The notes: a model not told the origin generated them from the letters alone. Shown: positions 2,590 through 47,780, numbered from the stretch's first letter. The stretch is 64,000 nt of DNA from Candidatus Iainarchaeum sp. (GCA_026397015.1 JAPLVR010000003.1:160001-224000), one strand, 5' to 3'. Program-made: numbers and translations.

Positions 2590-2662
2590 GCCCCGATAGT
2601 GTAGCGGTCAAGCACTCCACCCTCTCACGGTGGAAACTCGGGTTCGAGTCCCGATCGGGGTA
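2590..2662 (+). tRNA. tRNA-Glu(CTC)
   Basis: Acceptor GCCCCGA/TCGGGGT; anticodon arm CCACC-CT-CTC-AC-GGTGG; T-loop TTCGAGT. Confidence 0.95.
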
Positions 2663-2762
2663 TATCGTAAAACAGGGTATATTATTCGCCAGATTACTGG
2701 TTGTACAAACCTTTATATAGCGACCAAACTCGAAGAATATATTATTCTCAGAGTTGGTTTGA

Positions 2763-3932
2763 ATGGTAGATTTGTACAATAACAAGGCGAGGTATGCCCG
2801 AAAAAAAAAAGAACTAATTGATGAGTTCGAGGGCGAAATAAAAGAAATTTTGAAAAAGTACGTTGCCCTGCATGACTCAAAATTTGAACGCGAACAAATG
2901 GCTTACGGCTCTGCCTTACGAAGCCTTGAAACCGCACGGGACATTTCCAGTTGGAAAGATATATTTTCAGAGAAACCTTACTCAGTTGAAGCGGCTAAAG
3001 AATGGTGGAAGCACCAATTAGTAAGACCAAGTCAGAAGAGCAAACAAAAGCTGACCATTAGTACCTTGGAAAAGGCACAAGGGCAAGCGTCAAAATTTTT
3101 CAAATTCCTTGAATTCCTAGAAACTGAAAACGACATTGCTTTTTTTAACACTCAAAAATTACCTCCTGCAAAAGCCAGCAGGTATTTTATCGTGGAAATA
3201 CCAAAAAAACAAAAAGAAATCCCCCGCCTCAACCTAACTAAATTTATTGAGGTGTTTCATACTTTGACAAAATCCCCCATGTATTACGAACGGCTTGCAG
3301 GAATTCTGTTCATTGCTGCTTATGATTTGGGTTGCCGGTTTGGCGAACTCGCTTCACTAAAGAACAAGAGTTTTCAAGTGGTTGAAGGGCAACTGCTAAT
3401 TAACTTGGAGGACTCAAAAACCAAGACGAGAACCGTTGTCCCAATCTTGTCAAAAAAATACTTAATTAATTGGCAATCCATGTCGCCAACTCGCGATGAC
3501 CCCGAAGGATACTTCTTTTGTGACCGAAAGGGCAGCTTTGTTCCTTATGACAAGGTCAGTATGGCTTTGAAAGAAGCGTGTGCTAAGGTCGGTTTTGAAT
3601 TTCCAGGATGCAAATTATGGCATTACCTTCGCCACGAATTTGCTTCTCGGGCCTACCAAATGCCAGAAAATCTAATTAGGTATTACCTTGGTTGGAGTGA
3701 TGGAAGCATTAGAGCAGTTTATTCGCACAATAATTGGAAGGAGTGCTTGCCATACCTTCACAAAATGAACGAGGGGCACCCATTGCTTGATGAGCCTTTA
3801 TCCGTACTTGAAAAAGAAGAAACAAACAAATTTGAGAGCCAGCTCGAGCAATTGATAGAGAGCAAAGTTGTTGAATGGTTAAGAAACAATCAAAAAAACG
3901 GAGGTGATTTACATGAAGAAATACAAATTTAG
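2763..3932 (+). CDS. int: Tyrosine recombinase/integrase
   Basis: Catalytic set GCR...SKTK...HYLRH...LGW...VYSH; starts 100 bp after tRNA-Glu. Confidence 0.9.
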   Translation: MVDLYNNKARYARKKKELIDEFEGEIKEILKKYVALHDSKFEREQMAYGSALRSLETARDISSWKDIFSEKPYSVEAAKEWWKHQLVRPSQKSKQKLTISTLEKAQGQASKFFKFLEFLETENDIAFFNTQKLPPAKASRYFIVEIPKKQKEIPRLNLTKFIEVFHTLTKSPMYYERLAGILFIAAYDLGCRFGELASLKNKSFQVVEGQLLINLEDSKTKTRTVVPILSKKYLINWQSMSPTRDDPEGYFFCDRKGSFVPYDKVSMALKEACAKVGFEFPGCKLWHYLRHEFASRAYQMPENLIRYYLGWSDGSIRAVYSHNNWKECLPYLHKMNEGHPLLDEPLSVLEKEETNKFESQLEQLIESKVVEWLRNNQKNGGDLHEEIQI

Positions 3933-4050
3933 ATGCACTCGCTGCGGAATAGTTGTTGAATCAGACACAATTCCCCCAGAAAGAAAACTTGTCGGACCAT
4001 GCACTCAAGTACACAACGGAGAACATTATTGGTACAAAATATGGGGGTAA
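3913..4050 (+). CDS. Small zinc-finger protein (45 aa, not in the ORF track)
   Basis: MKKYKFRCTRCGIVVESDTIPPERKLVGPCTQVHNGEHYWYKIWG; RBS GGAGGTGA immediately upstream. Confidence 0.6.
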   Translation: MKKYKFRCTRCGIVVESDTIPPERKLVGPCTQVHNGEHYWYKIWG

Positions 4051-4172
4051 TGAAGTATCTTGGCAGATATGACCAAAAGTGCGCAATGGCGACCACTATT
4101 GGCTATACCATGGTGGCAAGGCACTCTAAGAGCATTTAAAAAGATAAAACTGAAAATATTATTGGTGTTGGG

Positions 4173-5402
4173 ATGAAAACGATTAACCATACATGGGATT
4201 TTTCTGGTGCCAATACTAAGTACTACACTCACGGCATTCATTCTTATCCCGCAATGATGATTCCTCAAGTTGCCCACAGAATAATAGAAGAACATGGAAA
4301 AAATGCAGAAACTGCTTATGACCCATTTTGCGGCTCAGGAAGTGTATTACTCGAATTCAAAACCGCAGGAATCGAATGTTATGGCTCAGACTTAAACCCA
4401 TTAGCAATACTCATTAGCAAAGCAAAAACAACTCCTATTGCTACAGAAAAAATTGAAAAAGCATTTCAAAAAATATCTCAACGGATAAAGGAGATTGAAA
4501 ATAAACCTTGTGAAGAACCCAACTTTTCAAAAATAGATTTTTGGTTCAAAAAGAAACCCATCAAAGACCTTGCAATAATCAAGCTAGCTATTGACGAGTT
4601 AGAGGAAACTACTCTAAAAAACTTTTTCCTTGTTTGCTTTAGTGAAACAGTTAGAAAAAGCAGTAACACCCGTGGAGGAGAGTTCAAACTCTACCGCCTA
4701 GGAGAAAAAGATCTTGCGAAATATAATCCCAAGGCAAATGAGATATTTGGAAAAATATACCAGCGTAACGTGGCTGGCATGAATGAACTTAACAATCTAA
4801 CCAAACAAAAAGAACTTCCAAGTGTTACTGTTCTTGAAGCAGACGTAAGCAAAAAAGTCCCCATAGAACCCAAGAGCATAGACCTGATTGTTTCATCCCC
4901 CCCTTATGGGGACAGTAGGACCACTGTAGCTTATGGGCAATTCAGCCGATTAAGCATGCAATGGCTCGGAATTAATCACAATAAAAATACTGACGTGGAC
5001 AAAAATAGCTTGGGCGGTAAGCCACAAAAAGAAAACCTCGTAGAACATTCCACAAATCTCGAAAAAGCCATCTCAAAAATAAGCAAAGAAGATGAAAAAA
5101 GAGCTCAGGACGTGATATCTTTCTTTAATGACTTTTATCTTGCTGCACAAAACATAGAAAAAGTCATGAAAGAAAACTCAACCATCGCATGGGTAGTTGG
5201 GAATCGAACAGTAAAAGGCATAAAAATTCCAACTGACCAGATACTCGTCGATATGTTCAGAGACCTCAATTACACCCATGATAAAACAATTATCAGAAGC
5301 ATTCCATCAAAAAGAATGCCAAGAAGCAACAGCCCGACAAATAAGAAAGGGGTTTTATCTCCAACAATGAATGAAGAGTACATCATTATTTTGAAACGGT
5401 GA
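4173..5402 (+). CDS. N4-cytosine DNA methyltransferase, M.MvaI-like
   Basis: THGIHSYPAMMIPQ, DPFCGSG (SAM-binding) and SSPPY (catalytic). Confidence 0.85.
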   Translation: MKTINHTWDFSGANTKYYTHGIHSYPAMMIPQVAHRIIEEHGKNAETAYDPFCGSGSVLLEFKTAGIECYGSDLNPLAILISKAKTTPIATEKIEKAFQKISQRIKEIENKPCEEPNFSKIDFWFKKKPIKDLAIIKLAIDELEETTLKNFFLVCFSETVRKSSNTRGGEFKLYRLGEKDLAKYNPKANEIFGKIYQRNVAGMNELNNLTKQKELPSVTVLEADVSKKVPIEPKSIDLIVSSPPYGDSRTTVAYGQFSRLSMQWLGINHNKNTDVDKNSLGGKPQKENLVEHSTNLEKAISKISKEDEKRAQDVISFFNDFYLAAQNIEKVMKENSTIAWVVGNRTVKGIKIPTDQILVDMFRDLNYTHDKTIIRSIPSKRMPRSNSPTNKKGVLSPTMNEEYIIILKR

Positions 5403-5611
5403 AGCTTATGACAGTACACGAATCATTAAGAGATGGAAGAAAAATATACAACACGATAAAGAAAGATGGCGACCGACTAATTTTTTCTAAAGATTTCCCA
5501 AATTGCAAAGGTCTTTATCCCGACTGCCCCTCAAATCCTTCGCTTACGGAAAAAAATTGTAGAACCTGCCCAAAAACAGACGAATTGAAAAAACCAAAAA
5601 TGGAAAGTTAA
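5399..5611 (+). CDS. Small Cys-rich hypothetical protein
   Basis: Overlaps the methylase stop (GTGA); four Cys including CRTC. Confidence 0.5.
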   Translation: MKLMTVHESLRDGRKIYNTIKKDGDRLIFSKDFPNCKGLYPDCPSNPSLTEKNCRTCPKTDELKKPKMES

Positions 5612-5623
5612 TATGGTGAACAA

Positions 5624-6121
5624 ATGACACTTCAAAAACAAAACATCTGCAATGCGGGGGAGTATTATTTTGCATCAATACTTTCAGCACAAAATTTTAC
5701 GGTAACCATAACTCTTGGAAGGGCAGAAAAGTATGACATACTTGCAGTAAATGAAAAAGGAAAGACAATAAAAATATCTGTAAAGTCAAGATACAAAGAG
5801 GCAGTAAAAAGATTTCCTTTAAAAGAAAGTGATGAAACTAATGGTGCTGACGATTTCTTTTATGTCTTTGTTCGGCTCAACGAATTTAAAAAAGAACCTG
5901 ACTTTTGGATTGTTCCGAGCAAAAGAGTTAATGAACTGACTCATCACGCTTCGCACATTTATTTTGACATCAAAAAACGCAAAGATGGCAAGCGCCACAA
6001 GGATACAGGAATAAGGAATTTTTGGTTAGTCATAAATAAAACAAGTAAAGGGCTGTTTCCAAAAAATTGGGAAAACGAGCTAAAGACTTATCACAAAAAT
6101 ATTTCTCAACTTACTCGTTAA
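5624..6121 (+). CDS. PD-(D/E)XK-fold nuclease-like protein
   Basis: GEY...YDIL...ISVK pattern; RBS GGTGA. Confidence 0.6.
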   Translation: MTLQKQNICNAGEYYFASILSAQNFTVTITLGRAEKYDILAVNEKGKTIKISVKSRYKEAVKRFPLKESDETNGADDFFYVFVRLNEFKKEPDFWIVPSKRVNELTHHASHIYFDIKKRKDGKRHKDTGIRNFWLVINKTSKGLFPKNWENELKTYHKNISQLTR

Positions 6122-6161
6122 TATTTAAAGCAAAGATATTTTCAAAAAAGGAAGCGAAATA

Positions 6162-6641
6162 ATGACTGATGAAGAAAGTTTAGATTATCTGAAAAAAACA
6201 TATCCTTCAATTTTGTCTCAAGCAAAATCCAATCGAGACGAATATTTCTCGAAAGTTATGGGTAACGTTAAAACGTACTGGCGGAAGAAAAACTCGCTGG
6301 TGTTTAAACGTTCTCAAGAAAATTTATTCATTTTTGGATTCTATTGCGAAGCATGTGTCGTGTCAAGAGTTGTTTTAGAGGATGCCATACGGCGAAAATA
6401 TAATCCTTCTTCAAAGAAAACACTCGAAACGATTATTGATGAATGCCTTATAGGCAAAACAAAAGATTTAGCACACAAAATACGAAAGAATGGAAATAAT
6501 TTTGCCCATGAAAACTGGCGCAGAAGACAACCCTTATTTCCAGAAAAAGACGAAAAGGAAAAAGCCATGAAATCTGCAAAAGCGTTAAATCAAGTATTAG
6601 TTGATTTGGGTTATAAAGAACCAGAGTTTTTTCAGGGTTGA
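6162..6641 (+). CDS. DUF4145/HEPN-like protein
   Basis: SRVVLE...IRKNGNNFAH motif typical of DUF4145. Confidence 0.55.
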   Translation: MTDEESLDYLKKTYPSILSQAKSNRDEYFSKVMGNVKTYWRKKNSLVFKRSQENLFIFGFYCEACVVSRVVLEDAIRRKYNPSSKKTLETIIDECLIGKTKDLAHKIRKNGNNFAHENWRRRQPLFPEKDEKEKAMKSAKALNQVLVDLGYKEPEFFQG

Positions 6642-6691
6642 AAAGCACTTAAAAACCCTAAGTTAGGGAATATTTCGGAGGGTTATCCTCA

Positions 6692-6979
6692 ATGAATATG
6701 CAACGTGTACAAGAAACTCTCGGCAAAGTTGGGGGAAGAAACCTTAGTTCAAGCACAGAAGCCTTGCAAGAAGGTTTGGAATACATTGCAGGAGAGGACG
6801 ACCAAATTCCTTATGCAGGGTATGCACAAGGGTTAATAGAACGTGAACTTGAAAAACGCCAAAATAAGGAAAACATTGCAATTGCTAAAACAAACCTGTT
6901 TTGGCAAAAAGTTGGCATCATTGTTTCAGTCATTGCTGCGTTTATTGCAATACTTATTGCAATTTACTTAAAAAAATAA
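6692..6979 (+). CDS. Hypothetical protein with C-terminal TM helix
   Basis: RBS GGAGG; hydrophobic C-terminus. Confidence 0.55.
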   Translation: MNMQRVQETLGKVGGRNLSSSTEALQEGLEYIAGEDDQIPYAGYAQGLIERELEKRQNKENIAIAKTNLFWQKVGIIVSVIAAFIAILIAIYLKK

Positions 6980-21969: not shown

Positions 21970-22737
21970 TTAATGTGTTTGCCAGAGTAGCTCAACGGTA
22001 GAGCTGCACTCTTGTAAAGTGCGGGTTGGGGGTTCAAATCCCTCCTCTGGCTCTAAAATGTGCTTAACCTTTCTAAGATGCTTTTCATTGGAAAAACCAA
22101 TTAATTCAACCCATTTCTTTATCTGCCCGTTGCCATAAATCACAATGTCATATCTGTCGTTCCAATCGGTTTTTGACTTGGAACAATAAATCGAAAAATC
22201 TGCCGAAAGGATCTCTTTTAATTGTGAAAATAAAGGCTTGCTGTATGTTACCAAATGTATTCTTCCGTATGGTTTTCTGTAAATATTTCTTTCGTCAATG
22301 TAAACGCATCCATCCGTATCGGCTATTCCTCTTATTGCTGCATAAATAAAACTTTTTTTAGAAACCAATATTTCTTCAGGTATTTTAACGGTTAGCGTTT
22401 TTTCTCCCGGGACAAATTCAAACCTTTCGGTCAGCAAAGAAAATGCGAACTTTGAATAAATATTTAGAATTATTGCATTTGAATCTTTTCTGAAACTTGG
22501 GTTGGCGGTTGCGCCAAAGAGTTTCCTAGCAAGTGGGGCAAGCCTGTTTACTAAATAATCCTTATCAAGATTAGCATCACCTGTGACGCTTATGTGATAG
22601 TTTGGCTTGCCGCTTTGTTTAGTGTAACCGCTGACGCATCCATCCCCAATAACCGCGCCAATAAATTCGCACAACTCTTCTGTCAATGGAAACTCATCAA
22701 CGGGCGTTTTTCCAAAATGATGCCCAGAAAATTCCAT
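21970..22737 (-). CDS. Free-standing double-motif LAGLIDADG endonuclease
   Basis: FIGAVIGDGC and IRGIADTDGC motifs, IGFSN; the C-terminus reads antisense through tRNA-Thr. Confidence 0.85.
   Translation of the reverse strand: MEFSGHHFGKTPVDEFPLTEELCEFIGAVIGDGCVSGYTKQSGKPNYHISVTGDANLDKDYLVNRLAPLARKLFGATANPSFRKDSNAIILNIYSKFAFSLLTERFEFVPGEKTLTVKIPEEILVSKKSFIYAAIRGIADTDGCVYIDERNIYRKPYGRIHLVTYSKPLFSQLKEILSADFSIYCSKSKTDWNDRYDIVIYGNGQIKKWVELIGFSNEKHLRKVKHILEPEEGFEPPTRTLQECSSTVELLWQTH
21981..22052 (+). tRNA. tRNA-Thr(TGT)
   Basis: Acceptor GCCAGAG/CTCTGGC; anticodon arm GCACT-CT-TGT-AA-AGTGC. Confidence 0.95.
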
Positions 22738-22784
22738 GCAATAAATTTATATTATTCGTCGGTTCTTAATGATTACGAGGCTTC

Positions 22785-22819
22785 CGTGCCGGTCGGGGGT
22801 TCGAATCCCTCCCGAGGCT
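22785..22819 (+). tRNA. Orphan tRNA 3' half (Thr-like); split-tRNA half or pseudogene fragment
   Basis: CGTGC-CGGTC-GGGGG-TTCGAAT-CCCTC-CCGAGGC-T followed by a T-run; no matching 5' half found in the window. Confidence 0.6.
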
Positions 22820-31735: not shown

Positions 31736-31848
31736 GGTTTTGTCCGCAAAGCGGAGAACCAATTGTTTGTGGCAGTTGCATTTGCGAAGTATGCTGCATC
31801 GAGCGAAAGCGAAGATGCTGCTCAGATGCCAACTGGCTGCAGCAGTTG
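31736..31848 (+). ncRNA. Structured putative 5' leader of tRNA-Tyr
   Basis: TATA-like TTTAAA at ~31707; hairpin TCCGC-AAA-GCGGA, then a long imperfect stem 31761-31847 capped by GC-GAAA-GC. Confidence 0.45.
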
Positions 31849-32022
31849 CCCCCCTTAGTTTAGTAGCTTGAACGCTCGGCTGTAGATATAGCCCTTTTCT
31901 TTTCGAAAGAAAAGTGCTATCATCCCAAAAGAAATTTTAGGATGCTTTTATTTCAGCGATTGCTGATACGAGTAAAAGGAATAGCTACCGAGAGATCCCC
32001 GGTGCAACTCTGGGAGGGGGGA
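31849..32022 (+). tRNA. tRNA-Tyr(GTA) with a 101-nt intron at 37/38 (31886-31986)
   Basis: C1:G72 acceptor CCCCCCT/AGGGGGG; CTCGG-CT-GTA-G|A-CCGAG; BHB central helix CTGT/ATAG. Confidence 0.9.
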
Positions 32023-32088
32023 TTACACTTATAGTGCAATTCAATCAATTAGCAAAGATTTATATTAATTAAAAAATATTGTGTTGAT

Positions 32089-32322
32089 ATGGGACTAAGA
32101 AGATTAATACGATTGAAAAAGCTTCAACGCTTGAAGAGGGATCCGGAGCGAAGAGCGCAACTTGAAGTTGCCCGGGACTTTAGAAGATACTCTAGAATTA
32201 ATCAGGAACCCAATTCACTTACTGGTGAAAAAGATCCAGGCATGTTACAAATTGCAAGCAAACAACGAGCAACCGCTAATAGAATTACAGCTGATCTGAA
32301 GAAAAAAAGAAAATCTCTGTAA
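32089..32322 (+). CDS. Small basic hypothetical protein
   Basis: 77 aa; TATA-like TTTATAT about 30 nt upstream (leaderless layout). Confidence 0.6.
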   Translation: MGLRRLIRLKKLQRLKRDPERRAQLEVARDFRRYSRINQEPNSLTGEKDPGMLQIASKQRATANRITADLKKKRKSL

Positions 32323-32519
32323 TTTGTTGCTAATCTACAGAATGGCGCTGGCTGCGGCAGTCGAGAAGGGGGAATTCCCTTTAGAGGGGCACCACCTAAA
32401 CTAGTTCGACCACAAACTCTTGTTTTTACTACACACGCCCCTCAACTGCAAAAAACACGCAATCTTACTTGTAAGAAATCCTTAAATATTAGTTTGAATA
32501 CAGTATTAACGGTGATTGG

Positions 32520-32768
32520 ATGCAGCCAATAGTTGAAACAACAAAGATGTCCACAAAAGGGCAAATAATAATACCTAAAGAAGTAAGGGATTTCACCCAA
32601 AGCAAGGAAAATACACTGTTTACAGTAACGCCAGTGAACACTGACACGATTATCCTCAAAAAATTAAACAGGCAAGAAATGGTGAAAGAATTCCAAAAAA
32701 TAAGGCAAGAAGTAAAAGGCAAGCTTTCAGAGGATGAAATCAATGACCTCATACACAAAGTTCGATAG
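32520..32768 (+). CDS. AbrB/MazE/SpoVT family antitoxin
   Basis: TKMSTKGQIIIPKEVR. Confidence 0.85.
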   Translation: MQPIVETTKMSTKGQIIIPKEVRDFTQSKENTLFTVTPVNTDTIILKKLNRQEMVKEFQKIRQEVKGKLSEDEINDLIHKVR

Positions 32769-33177
32769 CCGAAAACTCGTCCTAGACACAAACATAATAA
32801 TTTCAGCGTTAATAGGAAAGCACGGCGAATCGGCAAAACTATTCGAAAAACTAATCCAGGAAGAAATTGACAACTATACAAGCAAAGAAATCATCCAAGA
32901 AATAATTGACGTGCTAAACAGAAAAGAAATAATAAAAAGAACAGCAAAAGAAGCAAGAACATTCATCCTAGAACAATACCTCACACACTCAAAAATAGTT
33001 GTGCCAAAAGAAAAACACAAAATCACGGCACATGAATCAGACAACAAATTCATTGATACGGCAATTGAAGCAAAAGCAAGCTTTATCGTAAGCGGAGACA
33101 AACACTTGCTTGAAATAAAAGAATTTAAAGAAATAAAAATAATAAGAGCAAAAGAATACTTAGGCAACGGAAAATGA
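32734..33177 (+). CDS. PIN-domain toxin (VapC-like)
   Basis: VLDTNIIIS, DNKFIDTA, IVSGDKHLL; overlaps the antitoxin gene. Confidence 0.9.
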   Translation: MKSMTSYTKFDSRKLVLDTNIIISALIGKHGESAKLFEKLIQEEIDNYTSKEIIQEIIDVLNRKEIIKRTAKEARTFILEQYLTHSKIVVPKEKHKITAHESDNKFIDTAIEAKASFIVSGDKHLLEIKEFKEIKIIRAKEYLGNGK

Positions 33178-33277
33178 AAAGCAAACTGCCAACCAAGAAC
33201 AACCCGCGTGCAACTCTGGGGGGATTACATTTATATAATTCAAACGACTTATGCTTAGATTGGAGTGGTGATTTTAT

Positions 33278-33574
33278 TTGAATAAAAAATTTGGTTTAAA
33301 GTTTTTATTTGATCCGCAGTTTTTATTTGATTTACAGTTTTTAGCACTCAAAATTATAGGATTGCTGATTGCAACATATTTCATCTCAAACCTTTACTTT
33401 ACGGCAATCACAAGCACCTTTGCAAATTTGGAATATTTAACTTACTACTGGCCATTTTTTACTCTGGAAATATTAGCCGCTTTAATAGGGCTGTATTTAC
33501 TTTTTCGGCAAAAGAAATTCCCGGAAATGAAAATCCCTGAAAAACAAAAAAATGGGAATAAGAAAAAGAAATAA
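33278..33574 (+). CDS. Two-TM hypothetical protein
   Basis: RBS GGTGA, TTG start, two hydrophobic segments. Confidence 0.55.
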   Translation: MNKKFGLKFLFDPQFLFDLQFLALKIIGLLIATYFISNLYFTAITSTFANLEYLTYYWPFFTLEILAALIGLYLLFRQKKFPEMKIPEKQKNGNKKKK

Positions 33575-33648
33575 ATATGCGGAACGGCCCCGACTGCAGC
33601 AATCGGGGAGGGGATTTATTTTTATACAATTCTTTGTTTGATTTAGTC

Positions 33649-34746
33649 ATGAATAAATCAATGCGAGATGCTACGACTGAGCCTATTCTGGATTATTCCA
33701 AGTTGCTGCGCCCCGCCAACTTTATCGGGGCTTCTCAGGAGGGGATTATTTCTTTTGGTTCGGGCCAACCTGACCTTGCTCCGCCGCAGGAAGTTTTTTC
33801 CGGCTTAGGGTTGCACAGGACATTCAAATACGGGCCTGTTGCCGGGCAGGACACATTAAGGGAAGCGCTTGCGAAAGAAAACCCCTTGTTTAGCAAAGAG
33901 CATTTTGTTATAACTAACGGGTCTTCGGAAGCGCTGGATATTATTTTTCGCGTACTTGCAAAACCAAAAGACAAAATACTGATACACACGCCATACTACT
34001 ATTCGTACAAACCATTACTAGAGCTAAACAATTTTGAACCCGTATTAGTAAATACCGTCAAGGGGAAAATTGATATGGGGGATTTTAGAAAAAAAGTTGT
34101 GGGGGTCAAGGCTGTGTTGATTAATTCTCCGAGCAATCCTACCGGCGTGATTCAAGAAATCAGTGCGCTTAAAGAAATTGAAAAAATAACAAAAGACCTC
34201 GATATCCCTCTGGTGTCTGATGAAGTGTATAAGGACTTGATTTATGAGAGAGAAAATTATTCTCTTTCAGGGCCGCACGTGATTACGGTGAATTCATTCT
34301 CAAAAACATTCAACCTGTGCGGTTTGCGCGTAGGGTACTTATTCTCCAATGACTTGGGCATAGTAAACAAAGTGATTAATTTCAAGTCCCATAGCTCAAT
34401 GAACACTTCAATTCTTTCCCAAGAGATGGCAGTGAAAGCGCTTAGTGTTCCGAAAAAGTTTATACGGGACCAGGTCAAGATTTGGAAGAGCAGAAGGGAT
34501 TTGATATACGAGGGGCTAACTGAAATGGGCCTTGATTTGTGGAAACCGGAAGGCGCATTTTATGTTTTCCCAAAAATCGACAACCCCGAAAAATTCGTGT
34601 ATGAGATGCATAAATACCACAAGGTTATCACTTACCCCGGAACCTGGTTTGGAGACAACGAACGGGTAAGATTTTCTTACGCTCTTAACGCAAACAAAAT
34701 TGAGGAAGGACTAGAGCGAGTGAGAAAGTACTTACACCGCCCATAA
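33649..34746 (+). CDS. PLP-dependent aminotransferase class I/II
   Basis: GQPD, NSPSNPTG, SDEVY, SFSKTF...GLRVG, GAFY; start reassigned to the ATG at 33649. Confidence 0.9.
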   Translation: MNKSMRDATTEPILDYSKLLRPANFIGASQEGIISFGSGQPDLAPPQEVFSGLGLHRTFKYGPVAGQDTLREALAKENPLFSKEHFVITNGSSEALDIIFRVLAKPKDKILIHTPYYYSYKPLLELNNFEPVLVNTVKGKIDMGDFRKKVVGVKAVLINSPSNPTGVIQEISALKEIEKITKDLDIPLVSDEVYKDLIYERENYSLSGPHVITVNSFSKTFNLCGLRVGYLFSNDLGIVNKVINFKSHSSMNTSILSQEMAVKALSVPKKFIRDQVKIWKSRRDLIYEGLTEMGLDLWKPEGAFYVFPKIDNPEKFVYEMHKYHKVITYPGTWFGDNERVRFSYALNANKIEEGLERVRKYLHRP

Positions 34747-34883
34747 TTCTGGCACCGTAGCAACTCTGGAGGGGGATTTTTTTCTTATTACTGCACCGCC
34801 TTTAGGCAGTGCATATGTGTCGGTGCCAGCGGACGAAACCGCCGAACGATATGTTTAAATTCTGTAATTTACAGAATTTGTGC

Positions 34884-35246
34884 ATGACAAAGACTCGTAT
34901 AAGAACGCTTTCCAAAGAGGTAATAATTAACATAAACAAGAAATTCTCTGATGGAATAATGCGAAATGAGGGGGAAATAGACCACGTAGTGTACAAAGTT
35001 GCCGGTACCAGAGGGATAGATAGAAAAGCCGCTACATTGCTAATGGACATTGCAAGAAAGCATGCTTTCACTGACGGAAATAAAAGAACCGCTTATGAAT
35101 CAATGCTTACATTACTTGAACTGAATGGAAAAAAACTTGAAGTTGGAGAAACATCGAGATTTAATGTTGTTGTTTGGGTAGTAAAACCGAAAACAAATTT
35201 AGAGGAAATAATTACGTGGATAGCAAACCACACAAGGGGTAACTAA
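34884..35246 (+). CDS. Fic/Doc family toxin
   Basis: HAFTDGNKRTA Doc-type motif; start reassigned to the ATG at 34884. Confidence 0.85.
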   Translation: MTKTRIRTLSKEVIININKKFSDGIMRNEGEIDHVVYKVAGTRGIDRKAATLLMDIARKHAFTDGNKRTAYESMLTLLELNGKKLEVGETSRFNVVVWVVKPKTNLEEIITWIANHTRGN

Positions 35247-35247
35247 A

Positions 35248-35376
35248 ATGAAAGTAATAAAAGTCAAAGGAAAAAGAGAACCAATAACAATGGCTGAATG
35301 GAGTGACGTTAAAGAAATGGTTGAAAGACACCTAAAAGAAAACAAAACATTCTACGCACAACTAGCTGAATTATAA
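35248..35376 (+). CDS. Small putative antitoxin (42 aa, not in the ORF track)
   Basis: MKVIKVKGKREPITMAEWSDVKEMVERHLKENKTFYAQLAEL; starts 1 nt after the Doc stop; RBS AGGGGT. Confidence 0.6.
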   Translation: MKVIKVKGKREPITMAEWSDVKEMVERHLKENKTFYAQLAEL

Positions 35377-35499
35377 TTGTGACAAGCAACAGTTTTGACC
35401 GTAATCTTGAGCGCCCCGTGTGCAACTCTAGGGGCATTCCTTTTTTCTGGTTTAGCTGCAAACAAAACTAATTTATTGCTTAGCTTGTAAAATTAGGTA

Positions 35500-44147: not shown

Positions 44148-44319
44148 ACTGTTGAAAGAATATTTGTCCAACCGCTATTTGCTACGACGCGAGAACTCAA
44201 AAATACATTTAACTACTTAACTTTTCACAAAAATTTAAAGCAGCGAAAAGACCTTTCATAAAAAAGGCTGTGCCGAACGAAGTGAGGCGTTTTTCGCCAG
44301 CCTTTTTCTCAAAAAGGCT

Positions 44320-44391
44320 GCCCCGATAGTCTATTGGTTAGGATTCACCCCTGTCACGGGTGAGAGCCGGGTCCGAATCCCGGTCGGGGCG
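44320..44391 (+). tRNA. tRNA-Asp(GTC)
   Basis: Acceptor GCCCCGA/TCGGGGC; CACCC-CT-GTC-AC-GGGTG; T-loop TCCGAAT. Confidence 0.95.
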
Positions 44392-44504
44392 TTTTGGGCG
44401 AAAGGCCTATCTATTAACAGTGTATATTTTAACAATAAAAAAAAGAAAAAGCAAAACCTTTAAATACAACCTCGATACACAAAATAATATTGGTTGCGAT
44501 TTCG

Positions 44505-47500
44505 ATGCGAAGACAAGTTTTGTTCTTATTTATGATTCTTCTTTCGGCGACTGTTTTTGCGGACTACTGTGTTAACAGGACTGGACCCGGTTATCTTGTG
44601 GGTTGCGGTGTGCTAGGAGTACAAAGCGGGTTTTCAACCTGCATTTATAACACCGACGCCGCCATGACTAAAATTAAGACTGTATTGAATTATACTGGAC
44701 CGAACTGCGGAGTAAGAGTTACTTGTTACAATATTGGCAGTGGCGCTAGTGCTGGTCTGCAAGTTTGTGCGGGATATGATACTGGTTGTTATGCGCCAGG
44801 CGCAGGGTCGTGCGTTTGCAGCCCGAATAGCCAATTTGCCCCTGAAACATGTTCAAATGGTTTTACCTATAAAACTTGTAACGGTAATGGTGACGGTTAT
44901 TCACAGGCGAACTGCCAGCGGATTGGCGGTAACTGCAGCGGTGGAGACATATTTTATACATCCAGGCTTAACACATCCTGCCCCCCAATAAACGGGCAAT
45001 GTGTTCAAGACGTTTATGGCGCCCTAAATGGCCTGGGATACTGGGAACAATCCTCAGGGGCAAGGGCTTACTGCGATACTGTGAATTATCATGGCCTTCA
45101 GGTGGCACAGGCATGCGTTAAAACAGATGGTTCATGTATCCCAAAGGTCTGTACAGCGAATGCGTATGAGACGAGGGTGTGCACCAACAACAAGGGATTC
45201 CAATGGAGACAATGCAACGGATCTGGAACAGGATACAACGCCGACTGGTCAGCCTGCATAACCATCCCGGGAGGAAACTGCACCACAACAACCGGCGACC
45301 AATTCTACACACTAAGAGCAAACACCACCTGCACCCAATCAGGACTAGCAGACGGATCATCATGCAGCCAAAACTACACTAACCAATTAAACTCACTAGG
45401 ATACAGCGGACCATACACAGGAACAAGAGTGTATTGTGAAAGCGGGTCATATGCAGGTTTTACAGCGGGAGAGGTGTGCGTAAAAACAGATGCAGCCTGC
45501 AACCCACCAATCTGCACAGCAAACGCATACGAAGCAAAAGTATGCGCCAACAACAAAGGATTCCAATACAGAAAATGCAACGCAAACGGAACAGGATACG
45601 AACCAGACTGGCAACCATGCACAGCACTGCCTGGAGGGGATTGTAAAACAATAACCGGGGATTTATTTTATACATCAAGACTGGAAGGCAAAAACTGCTC
45701 CCAATACGGGTTCGCAGGACAGACTGGATACTCGGCATGCGTACAAAGCATTAACAGAAGTGTTTTGGACGCAGTAGGATATACGGGACCATACATCGGA
45801 GCAAGAGCATACTGCGACGATGAAACATACCAAGGCGCAACTGCAGCAGAAGCATGCGTAAAAACAGATTCTTCTTGCGGAGCACCGTGCACAGTGGGGC
45901 AAATAGAAGCACAAACCTGTGACAATGACAATGGATACAAGTACAGAACATGCAACTCAACAGGAACGGCATGGAACGACTGGACCACATGCGCACCGCT
46001 ACCAGGAACAAACTGCGGAGCAGGAACAACCAAAATATTCTACAAAGCATTCCTCAACAAAACATGTGCGGAAGTCGCCCAGGGAAGAACAAATGTCTGT
46101 ATACAAGACGTATTCCAAATAGCGTGGAATAATGGGTACAGGGGCCTGGCAACGGGGGCAAAGGTATATTGTGATGATTACAGGACATCAAGCTTATACG
46201 GGGCAGGATTCTGCGTAAAGGTGGCTACGGAATGCGACCAGTCAGTCTGCACACCCGGAAAATACGAGGCAAGGGAATGCATAAACAAGAGGGCGGATAC
46301 CAAAATGCCAAGCGGATATCAATACAGGCAATGCAACACAACAGGGCAAGCATGGGGCGACTGGTCAACATGCGCACCAATACCGGGAATAAACTGCGGA
46401 ACCGGAATCACAAAAATATTCTACTACCCGAAACTCAACGTTACGTGTGCAGGGGTCGGGATACCGACAAGCGGACTATGCATACAAACAGTACTCCAAC
46501 AAGCAAAAGCACTCGGATACACCGGACCAGAAACAGGCGCAAGAGCATATTGTGATAATTACAGAACCGAAGATATATTCGGTGCGGGAGCATGCGTAAG
46601 AACGGACACAGGCTGCAATACCGGCTGCATATGCACCGACCAATACGACCCTGTTTGCGGAACAGACGGAAAAACTTATCCTAATGAATGCGCCGCGAGA
46701 TGCGCGAAAATAGCGGTCGCGTATGAAGGCGAATGCAAAGAAAACTGCGCAAAGGAAGGGGAAGGAATCTGCAACACATGCACACCGGGAAGCGGACCAA
46801 CGGAATGCTGCACCGGGCTGACAAAAATAACGCCCGCAAGTAAGCTAAATGATGATTGCACTTTGAAAAATATAGTCGGCGGACAATCATCAGTCTGCAC
46901 CCATTGTGGAGACGACATTTGCGGAACCGGAGAAAACAAATGCAACTGTCCACAGGATTGCAATCCCATTAAATGCGAAACAAGTAAAGATTGTTTAAGG
47001 GGTTGCATAGGGCCGAAAGCGACTTACGGTTCCTGCACGAACGGGCAATGTGTATATACTAGATGTGAAACGGATGGCAGTGGCATTGACAGATGTGCTG
47101 CAGACACCGCACCGCCAACGTGCGACAAAAGATGCGACGCGGACTGCGAAACCAACGCGGACTGCATGGTTACTTGCGCCCAAAATTTATGCGCGATTGG
47201 CGAAACCAATTGTGCAGAATGCCCTGAATACACCTGCAACAGAGAATCCTGCGAGTGTGAGCCGGTAGTAGTACCTGTACCGCGGTTTAATTTGACAGTG
47301 CATACTGGCTGGAATATTTTCTCGATACCCGGAGCATTGAGCCTACTGAGCAATAATTGCGATTCAAGCAGATTTAGAATTTACGAATACACCCCCTCTT
47401 CAATACCTTGGTTTGTTCCTGTAAGCAACGTTGAAATAGGAAAGGCATATTTACTATATTACCCTCTGGCAGATTGTTCGGTGAGAGGAACCATAACAGA

Positions 47501-47780
47501 GGCAATCAGTTCAAGCGAATTGCCGGCTGTCAGAACAGGCTGGAATTTCATACCTGTTCTTGTTGATATGATTGGAATGAAGGTGAGCGATCTTGTACCT
47601 GATTGTGGAGCCGTTAGGGCGTACTTCTACGATGCCGAAGCAGTTGGATTCGTTGACATAACTAATACTATTTTAACTTCAAGTGATTTAGGCCAAGGAT
47701 TCGGATTGTTTGCAATGAATGGCTGCACGGTTACAACACCATCGGAACCTGGCTTCCCTGCATTACCGGAGGCTGACTAA
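44505..47780 (+). CDS. Secreted Cys-rich repeat protein with a Kazal domain
   Basis: Signal peptide; five ~120-aa repeats; CTDQYDPVCGTDGKTYPNEC; C-terminal GWN repeats. Confidence 0.8.
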   Translation: MRRQVLFLFMILLSATVFADYCVNRTGPGYLVGCGVLGVQSGFSTCIYNTDAAMTKIKTVLNYTGPNCGVRVTCYNIGSGASAGLQVCAGYDTGCYAPGAGSCVCSPNSQFAPETCSNGFTYKTCNGNGDGYSQANCQRIGGNCSGGDIFYTSRLNTSCPPINGQCVQDVYGALNGLGYWEQSSGARAYCDTVNYHGLQVAQACVKTDGSCIPKVCTANAYETRVCTNNKGFQWRQCNGSGTGYNADWSACITIPGGNCTTTTGDQFYTLRANTTCTQSGLADGSSCSQNYTNQLNSLGYSGPYTGTRVYCESGSYAGFTAGEVCVKTDAACNPPICTANAYEAKVCANNKGFQYRKCNANGTGYEPDWQPCTALPGGDCKTITGDLFYTSRLEGKNCSQYGFAGQTGYSACVQSINRSVLDAVGYTGPYIGARAYCDDETYQGATAAEACVKTDSSCGAPCTVGQIEAQTCDNDNGYKYRTCNSTGTAWNDWTTCAPLPGTNCGAGTTKIFYKAFLNKTCAEVAQGRTNVCIQDVFQIAWNNGYRGLATGAKVYCDDYRTSSLYGAGFCVKVATECDQSVCTPGKYEARECINKRADTKMPSGYQYRQCNTTGQAWGDWSTCAPIPGINCGTGITKIFYYPKLNVTCAGVGIPTSGLCIQTVLQQAKALGYTGPETGARAYCDNYRTEDIFGAGACVRTDTGCNTGCICTDQYDPVCGTDGKTYPNECAARCAKIAVAYEGECKENCAKEGEGICNTCTPGSGPTECCTGLTKITPASKLNDDCTLKNIVGGQSSVCTHCGDDICGTGENKCNCPQDCNPIKCETSKDCLRGCIGPKATYGSCTNGQCVYTRCETDGSGIDRCAADTAPPTCDKRCDADCETNADCMVTCAQNLCAIGETNCAECPEYTCNRESCECEPVVVPVPRFNLTVHTGWNIFSIPGALSLLSNNCDSSRFRIYEYTPSSIPWFVPVSNVEIGKAYLLYYPLADCSVRGTITEAISSSELPAVRTGWNFIPVLVDMIGMKVSDLVPDCGAVRAYFYDAEAVGFVDITNTILTSSDLGQGFGLFAMNGCTVTTPSEPGFPALPEAD

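Follow-up and report, generated by a model that had tools for sequence, protein, structure and literature searches.

The systems closest to the locus reported here are tandem arrays of mobile elements at tRNA genes. In these arrays, a tyrosine integrase acts on the 3' portion of the tRNA gene, and each insertion restores the tRNA and leaves a partial copy of it; re-use of the site pushes older inserts outward, with partial tRNAs scattered through islands of accessory genes (PMC6563490; 10.1101/2020.12.28.424599, in their accessible parts). Tandem re-use of a tRNA attachment (att) site and partial tRNAs within islands are already known, and the units known from these sources are multi-kilobase and carry integrases. 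The smallest cryptic element given in the accessible part of a Thaumarchaeota survey measures 2.6 kb and encodes an integrase (PMC6563490). Integrase-less clusters of attC sites (CALINs), which belong to the integron world, have also been reported in Archaea (PMC9668308, accessible part). The stretch analysed here (hereafter the window) consists of 64,000 nucleotides from Candidatus Iainarchaeum sp. (GCA_026397015.1 JAPLVR010000003.1:160001-224000), i.e. positions 160001-224000 of contig C5 of genome G000, an assembly of 898,628 bp in 6 contigs with 42% G+C and a completeness of 85%. Downstream of its tRNA-Tyr gene, at 31833-35438, lies an array of five short gene cassettes separated by copies of the tRNA 3' end. 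The explanation that we favour, with a probability of about 60%, is serial site-specific integration at tRNA-Tyr of small cassettes that lack an integrase, carry mostly toxin-antitoxin genes and are mobilised in trans.

The tRNA-Tyr gene of the window was missed by a default run of ARAGORN and by Rfam, and was called once introns were allowed. Its 3' exon is 92-100% conserved across relatives. Downstream of it, five degenerate copies of the tRNA 3' end, all on the same strand, bound five modules of 0.35-1.16 kb (Table 1), and all five repeats placed here by a first-pass annotation, made from the sequence alone, are present on the plus strand. Repeat A1 matches the tRNA 3' region with an E-value of 7e-5 in a permissive BLAST search and the repeat profile with an E-value of 1.5e-5, its likeness running past the tRNA end into ACATTTATA. 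The motif upstream of repeat B2, GCGGAACGG, is common to the type B copies of relatives. The exact 10-mer GCAACTCTGG occurs three times in the whole genome, both strands included, at window positions 32004 (the tRNA), 33210 and 34760, all in this locus; a further copy at 35422 has one mismatch. When a 17-mer was searched with up to 3 mismatches, the window gave 2 matches against 0.12 expected, and 1 of 100 shuffles reached 2. For each of the 37 tRNAs of the genome, non-tRNA copies of the 3' end were sought within a few kb on the same contig; at the threshold used, tRNA-Tyr alone had any. A genome-wide terminator-like motif, the objection that the first-pass annotation had itself raised, can be ruled out, since the 10-mer is confined to the tRNA-Tyr locus.

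Such arrays are not restricted to the window. When 61 related genomes were searched with the DNA of the tRNA-Tyr region, both exons were matched, and many genomes also contain several further same-strand copies of the 3' exon only. We fetched 20 loci, which makes 21 with the window. Extra copies of the 3' exon were found downstream of tRNA-Tyr in 12 of these 21 loci (3, 7, 4, 5, 3, 3, 3, 6, 1, 2, 2 and 1 copies), and the other nine have none. In a profile search, every repeat copy was on the tRNA's own strand. The array loci number 11, from 10 genomes of the Candidatus Iainarchaeum family (DPANN), and their repeats are better kept than those of the window. The 43 inter-repeat intervals in these 11 loci have a median length of 864 bp and 41 of them do not exceed 2,512 bp, in a count that missed the degenerate repeat B1 and took the first two units of the window (352 + 850 bp) as one. 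The two larger intervals, of 3,878 and 7,864 bp, each contain a tyrosine integrase. From the end of a repeat to the next start codon the distance is mostly 50-90 nt, and open reading frames (ORFs) of at least 60 aa in the arrays are on the plus strand in 63 cases versus 15 on the minus strand, 10 of these 15 being inside two integrase elements and one being a spurious antisense call. Tandem series of short, co-oriented, repeat-bounded cassettes are thus found both in the window (five) and in relatives (43 intervals), and away from the tRNA the insert ends in a same-strand direct repeat of the tRNA's 3' part. In addition, an exact-pattern scan of metagenome contigs yielded 28 loci, of which 20 have 2-7 repeats and four have an integrase. 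The cargo includes toxin-antitoxin genes (PIN/AbrB, Doc/Fic, ParE, MazF, HicB-like, RelE/HigB-like), an AAA_14/DUF4143 ATPase, a GNAT acetyltransferase, DUF6498, a reprolysin-like protein of 807 aa and many orphans. In several relatives a tRNA-Asp gene is conserved 7-12 kb downstream of tRNA-Tyr, and the stretch between the two is variable.

The cassettes behave as exchangeable units whose borders are the repeats. Genome G001, of the same genus as G000, has the same upstream flank (DUF2666, PAP2), tRNA and downstream flank. It contains two cassettes and G000 five, with none in common; homology between the two stops at the tRNA end and sets in again 23 nt past repeat A3 for G000 and 14 nt past the final repeat for G001. 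In G007 and G008, the array begins with the AbrB-PIN cassette that takes second place in G000 (74-85% nucleotide identity). Likewise, there are copies of a Fic cassette in G036, G001, G007 (two copies) and G051, of a ParE/DUF2683 pair in four places and of a MazF cassette in four genomes. Wherever they recur, the cassettes begin at the same 5' boundary, at the repeat; their place in the array and their neighbours vary. All 33 inter-genome high-scoring segment pairs (HSPs) of at least 200 bp lie inside a single cassette and none crosses a repeat, while random placement gave 13.9 expected crossings with a minimum of 5 in 1000 trials; this crossing test is descriptive, the 33 HSPs being directional, in reciprocal pairs, and the genomes being related. 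Metagenome contigs give the sharpest boundaries. Between contigs L153 and L154, identity is 100% for 8,829 bp and ends with the last T of ...GGGAGGGGGGATT in tRNA-Tyr; beyond it they share 0 nt, one running into a cassette and the other into an integrase element. Contigs L141, L162 and L138 match one another at 100% or 99.99% identity (486-8,901 bp) as far as the repeat that closes an integrase element, and beyond that repeat three different cassettes begin within 1-6 nt. Chimeric joins are unlikely in these contigs, as judged from the contigs themselves, because the repeat is shorter than the usual assembly k-mers. In two public runs from another study (X3 and X4, in which the stretch has small shares), three loose contig ends were found at window position 32024, together with one joint from 32024 to 32449 with unknown letters between. 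These breaks are weak evidence: relatives with a different set of cassettes behind the tRNA would explain them, and they do not prove excision. The comparison of relatives downstream of tRNA-Tyr, proposed together with the initial reading, has thus shown modules that differ exactly at the repeats.

An integrase lineage is associated with the same tRNA gene. In G017, a 329-aa protein starts 65 nt after tRNA-Tyr and contains a Phage_integrase domain (PF00589, E 2.8e-20) and SAM-like N-terminal domains. Its relatives (44-91% identity) are located directly downstream of tRNA-Tyr in G021, G034, G031, G006 and G025, and the distance from tRNA to integrase is 23-86 nt in these six genomes. In G036, the integrase is inside the array, behind the fourth cassette. 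These seven genomes have elements of 3.9-10 kb that hold their own integrase, and in G018 a 27-aa remnant of an integrase C-terminus directly follows tRNA-Tyr. We counted 214 integrase relatives; for 79 loci of the wider family, a tRNA was found 23-274 nt upstream in 32, and this tRNA is tRNA-Tyr in 10 of the 32, including one called Asn by ARAGORN that has the same 3' end. The G017-type integrase scores below every NCBIfam cut-off (110 versus 220 for XerA), and the tRNA-Tyr-linked integrases reach 47.5 and 49.4 bits on the integron integrase model TIGR02249 (cut-off 265). Array and integrase occur together in G017 and G036. The array of the window, for its part, has no integrase: none was found within 31833-35438 by domain annotation, PF00589 scan or tblastn, as the first-pass annotation had reported. 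Its cassettes are DNA with an att copy on both sides and without a recombinase of their own, as in trans-mobilised elements. The three PF00589 genes of G000 are neither in nor adjoining the array; one is at tRNA-Ser on contig C3, one at tRNA-Glu (window 2763-3932) and one on contig C1, this last, the strongest match of the genome, being perhaps a housekeeping XerA-type recombinase.

PHROGs profiles run on the G017 integrase element matched only the integrase and an Avd-like protein. The latter, a 116-aa ORF (L021, 3572-3922), matches Avd of diversity-generating retroelements (PHROG 3206, E 9e-10); for the neighbouring ORFs of 505 and 656 aa, neither a Pfam nor a PHROGs match was obtained and no reverse transcriptase domain was seen.

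These integrase elements raise the question of whether the arrays are graveyards, i.e. full-size integrase-bearing elements that integrated in tandem and were later whittled by deletion, the small cassettes never having been mobile. Tandem att re-use by elements with tyrosine recombinases is known (accessible parts of PMC6563490; 10.1101/2020.12.28.424599), and elements of the required type are present in or at the arrays of G017, G036 and G006. The remnant in G018 would fit such a history, the final gene of the G017 element (202 aa) is found in another contig as a cassette bounded by repeats, and toxin-antitoxin genes, in which the cargo is enriched, could have been left because their loss is counter-selected. 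We nevertheless consider such a history unlikely. The geometry of the units is uniform in length, orientation and distance from repeat to start codon, and tblastn detected no integrase debris in the small cassettes. Moreover, the same cassettes are found with the same 5' boundary at other positions, no HSP crosses a repeat, and contigs that are 100% identical upstream switch cassettes exactly at a repeat, a pattern that random decay does not predict.

The anatomy of the repeats bears on two further explanations. Their shared core, TGCAAyTCTGGGAGGGGGGATT, corresponds to the T-loop, the 3' half of the T-stem, the 3' strand of the acceptor, the discriminator base and TT. In many copies, the likeness extends to the left over the entire 3' exon in diverged form (ACGAGAAT...), and many have one extra base, CCCCGTGTGCAA versus CCCCGGTGCAA in the tRNA, as does the attR of an integrase element. 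Repeat A3 has the exact signature with the extra base, and A1 (CCCGCGTGCAA) has a variant of it. Among 127 left flanks, 16 show exactly the element-type CCCGTGTGCAA in place of the tRNA's CCCCGGTGCAA. Because the extra base is common to the attR of the integrase element, we conclude from the sequences that the repeats are element-borne, att-sized copies of the 3' exon and not decayed local duplicates of the tRNA, as had first been proposed. On the other side of the core, right flanks recur in families, in which a short hairpin or A-run is followed by CyGArCAGA and this by a TATA-like box. Among the 8-mers downstream of the repeats, TTTTTATA is the most frequent (21 of 121 flanks), and conserved motifs reach 20-30 nt past the tRNA-identical core on the cassette side. 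Right-flank similarity tracks the downstream cassette (mean score 0.0 versus -0.186).

Type B repeats had initially been read as the 16 nt just 5' of the tRNA fused to its 3' end. The type B sequence, GGCGGAACGGyGCTGGCTGCGGCAsTCGGGGAGGGGGGATT, is common to G036, G006, G001 and G000 despite their differing tRNA-Tyr leaders, and it closes the integrase element in G006 and G036. Its likeness to the leader 16-mer, with 2 mismatches, is equalled at 2 unrelated places of the genome. A fusion of the local leader is ruled out by the genomes with other leaders and by these two unrelated matches; type B is, on this sequence comparison, a variant site common to several genomes.

A role of the repeats as functional RNA or regulatory elements, for instance as terminators or tRNA-like 3' processing signals, rather than as recombination sites would be in keeping with their location just after a stop codon, often with a T run following. 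This is very improbable. The motif is present nowhere else in the genome, its sequence is that of the tRNA 3' exon and delimits integrase elements, and the extra base of most copies disrupts T-arm pairing. In addition, the five repeat regions fold no better than shuffled sequences on either strand (z from -2.07 to +1.06) and have neither a common hairpin nor an attC-like fold, and Rfam gave nothing relevant for the repeats at E-values up to 10.

Homologous recombination alone, with att scars serving as short homology for host machinery that swaps cassettes between co-occurring strains, is in our judgement quite unlikely. It would account for the fact that no cognate integrase was found in 8 of the 10 array genomes and in 24 of the 28 metagenome loci; it also predicts breakpoints at the identity block, and gene conversion would make left arms more alike within a genome, as they are. 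The identity blocks, however, are only about 22-40 nt long, and an integrase lineage located at tRNA-Tyr itself has this repeat as its att site. The element-type signature in many repeats likewise speaks against it, as do the motifs that reach 20-30 nt past the core into the cassette, which an extended recombinase site would be expected to have.

Under the favoured explanation of serial site-specific integration, the tRNA-Tyr 3' exon would be the chromosomal attachment site for a tyrosine integrase lineage of Iainarchaeum-family archaea. Small circular modules of 0.35-2.5 kb, with 1-3 co-oriented genes, their own TATA-like promoter and a 3'-exon copy of about 25-40 nt, would integrate successively at the tRNA or at a resident repeat. 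Each insertion would restore the tRNA and leave a partial 3' copy between cassettes, which would produce a tandem array. Since the cassettes encode no integrase, the enzyme would have to be supplied in trans, by an element of 4-10 kb that encodes it, targets the same site and occurs in some genomes only. Toxin-antitoxin or other addiction cargo would then stabilise the array. The degenerate array of the window is probably an orphan and inactive; the decay of its repeats is among the highest (3-7 edits in 22, versus mostly 0-4 in most other arrays). The initial proposal of a tRNA-anchored gene-capture array filled in trans stands as far as an integrase-less array filled from outside is concerned, and a recombinase would presumably act in trans.

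Several observations weigh against this explanation. In G000 (85% complete), the searches detected no member of the tRNA-Tyr integrase lineage, the best match to it being 34% identical and adjoining tRNA-Ser, and among the 10 array genomes only G017 and G036 have one, incompleteness of metagenome-assembled genomes being a caveat. Circular cassettes were sought as terminal overlaps in the 28 metagenome contigs and none was seen; the exact repeat was not found in viral contigs. In the contigs of the public runs X1 and X2, which are possible sources and so not independent, the stretch is present unchanged in one contig. Breakpoints at a shared repeat of 25-40 nt would look alike under homologous recombination. 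Left arms are more alike within a genome (0.031 versus -0.114, a descriptive comparison), and the linkage of the left arm to the upstream cassette that a simple attP model predicts was not seen. Finally, the correlation of repeat decay with array rank is weak and not significant (rho 0.18, p 0.16; 62 repeats, not independent of one another), and thus gives no clear sign of growth with strictly the newest cassette next to the tRNA.

Table 1. The tRNA-Tyr locus of the window: tRNA gene, att-like repeats and cassettes (window positions).
Feature	Position	Strand	Description
tRNA-Tyr(GTA)	31849-32022	+	101-nt intron; ARAGORN with introns allowed
Proximal attachment-site copy	31987-32024	+	tRNA-Tyr 3' exon plus ATT
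Cassette 1	32025-32347	+	Orphan basic ORF 32089-32322, 77 aa, no Pfam family
Repeat B1	32348-32376	+	Degenerate type B site variant
Cassette 2	32377-33202	+	AbrB-family antitoxin 32520-32768 plus PIN toxin 32734-33177
Repeat A1	33203-33226	+	T-arm plus 3' end with 4-nt deletion
Cassette 3	33227-33589	+	Hydrophobic orphan ORF 33278-33574, 98 aa
Repeat B2	33590-33616	+	Type B variant
Cassette 4	33617-34754	+	Class I/II pyridoxal phosphate (PLP) aminotransferase 33649-34746 (E 4e-56)
Repeat A2	34755-34778	+	Exact 10-mer copy; BLAST and comparison of relatives' loci
Cassette 5	34779-35413	+	Doc/Fic toxin 34884-35246 plus 42-aa ORF 35248-35376
Repeat A3	35414-35438	+	Last of the array; CCCCGTGTGCAA signature of element-borne sites

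The gene contents of the five modules (an orphan, AbrB plus PIN, a membrane protein, an aminotransferase, and Doc plus partner) agree with those first annotated, the hydrophobic orphan being the third. AbrB (33.8 bits, cut-off 28.3), PIN (86.1 bits, cut-off 29.15) and Doc (52 bits, cut-off 38.65) are all above their thresholds. The aminotransferase of cassette 4 has matches in only 2 of 36 genomes of the same family, both weak (27-28% identity), and its nearest relative, with 66% identity, comes from another family. That relative (L165, i.e. G055:C33, about 1390-2540) also abuts a tRNA, a complete tRNA-Leu(GAG)-like gene that ends 38 nt before it. AT-rich, TATA-like octamers, read by eye from the sequence, are located about 20-50 nt upstream of the start codons of the array.

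Other features of G000 are also linked to tRNA genes. Starting 100 nt after a tRNA-Glu(CTC) gene (window 2590-2662), a tyrosine integrase of 389 aa (2763-3932) precedes a DNA methyltransferase (4173-5402) and a PD-(D/E)XK-like ORF. This region (2590-6700) is probably another integrated element with a restriction-modification system; a far att copy of it was not found at the threshold used. Directly after tRNA-Asp, a 1096-aa ORF (44319-47780) has no Pfam family and an integrase likeness at chance level (E 0.027). The scan of tRNA 3' ends gave one additional match, a tRNA-Thr-like 3' half at 22779-22813, whose acceptor strand is mismatched to tRNA-Thr(TGT). A LAGLIDADG-domain ORF (21970-22737, minus strand) is located between it and tRNA-Thr(TGT) (21981-22053), and this 3' half could be an att scar, a split-tRNA half or the result of a homing-endonuclease insertion.

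Upstream of tRNA genes, a conserved two-hairpin leader of about 70 nt is present in 14 copies in G000, one of them in the window (31775-31848) and others e.g. at C1:56721, C1:170652, C3:18283, C3:56162, C5:157754, C6:28257 and C6:41680. Eleven of the 14 are 31-95 nt upstream of tRNAs called by ARAGORN. The leader has an invariant TCGAGC...GCGAAGA internal loop, which we take to be K-turn-like, and a second hairpin that abuts tRNA position +1; compensatory changes affect 5 of the 9 pairs of hairpin 1, and the window copy has no Rfam match. The T-loop of tRNA-Tyr (31997-32013) reads TGCAACT, with G in place of the near-universal U55. This G is conserved in all relatives, and tRNA-Thr(GGT) and one tRNA-Met of G000 have it too. 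ARAGORN predicts introns in 13 of the 37 tRNAs of G000, 9 of them 70-150 nt long, and several of its isotype calls in relatives are shifted by introns.

DPANN archaea have tiny genomes and depend on hosts, and the gain and exchange of their accessory genes are poorly understood. If the proposed mechanism is true, these archaea would have a compact gene-shuffling device in which sub-kilobase cassettes are swapped between strains at a short repeat. It would be a functional parallel to integrons whose components are an ordinary tRNA att site and an integrase borrowed from elsewhere, indicating that cassette arrays can evolve more than once. It would also account for a hypervariable hotspot in Iainarchaeum-family genomes and offer a simple, testable archaeal recombination system with one integrase and a site of about 40 nt. 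For annotation, partial tRNA copies of this kind are to be taken as cassette borders rather than as tRNA pseudogenes. More tentatively, and with less than even confidence, we suggest that Iainarchaeum-family DPANN might possess a second, independently evolved platform for cassette capture. In this platform, tRNA-Tyr would serve as attI and the 25-40-nt repeat with its conserved right arm as the cassette site, and an exchangeable integrase borne by visiting elements would insert, excise and shuffle promoter-bearing single-gene cassettes among strains and genera; the array of the window would be its fossil.

Among known systems that involve borrowed enzymes, ICESt1/ICESt3 and SXT/MGI comprise cis-mobilisable, accreting att-flanked elements and islands that borrow a helper integrase. 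They resemble the present arrays in that integrase-less, att-flanked DNA at the helper's site would be moved in trans, and they differ in being kb-scale islands with one or two per site, whereas up to 8 single-gene cassettes are found here. Elements similar to these cis-mobilisable or integrative and mobilisable elements (CIME/IME) were not described for DPANN in the literature searched. The pdif modules of Acinetobacter plasmids are one- or two-gene units, often toxin-antitoxin, with short recombinase sites and an enzyme encoded elsewhere. Their sites, however, are inverted XerC/XerD sites on plasmids, whereas the repeats here are direct, derived from a tRNA and arranged in a chromosomal array. 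The literature searched, supplementary files being outside it, contains no description of such arrays in Iainarchaeota or DPANN.

Tandem tRNA att arrays and the tycheposons of Prochlorococcus follow the same att logic as the Iainarchaeum arrays, the likeness to tycheposons being architectural only. As far as the accessible parts of the corresponding reports go, their units are several kb long with their own integrase, whereas here the median is 864 bp, with 1-3 genes and neither integrase nor debris; they are also whole elements, whereas here discrete cassettes recur in different genomes. With integrons and CALINs, the arrays share tandem, short and mostly co-oriented ORFs split by a recombination site, often without an adjacent integrase, and toxin-antitoxin, acetyltransferase and orphan genes as typical cargo (PMC9668308, accessible part). 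The label 'integron-like' of the first-pass annotation holds for this tandem cassette architecture and is an analogy only. Membership of the integron/attC group was ruled out by the lack of an attC fold, of an Rfam match and of IntI. The site here is a copy of a tRNA 3' exon instead of a folded, imperfectly palindromic attC, and the linked recombinase is a generic Xer-like tyrosine integrase instead of IntI (47.5 bits versus 265). Moreover, cassettes carry the conserved site along at their 5' end, and where integrons have a common Pc, each cassette here has an apparent TATA-like promoter of its own, as predicted from the sequence.

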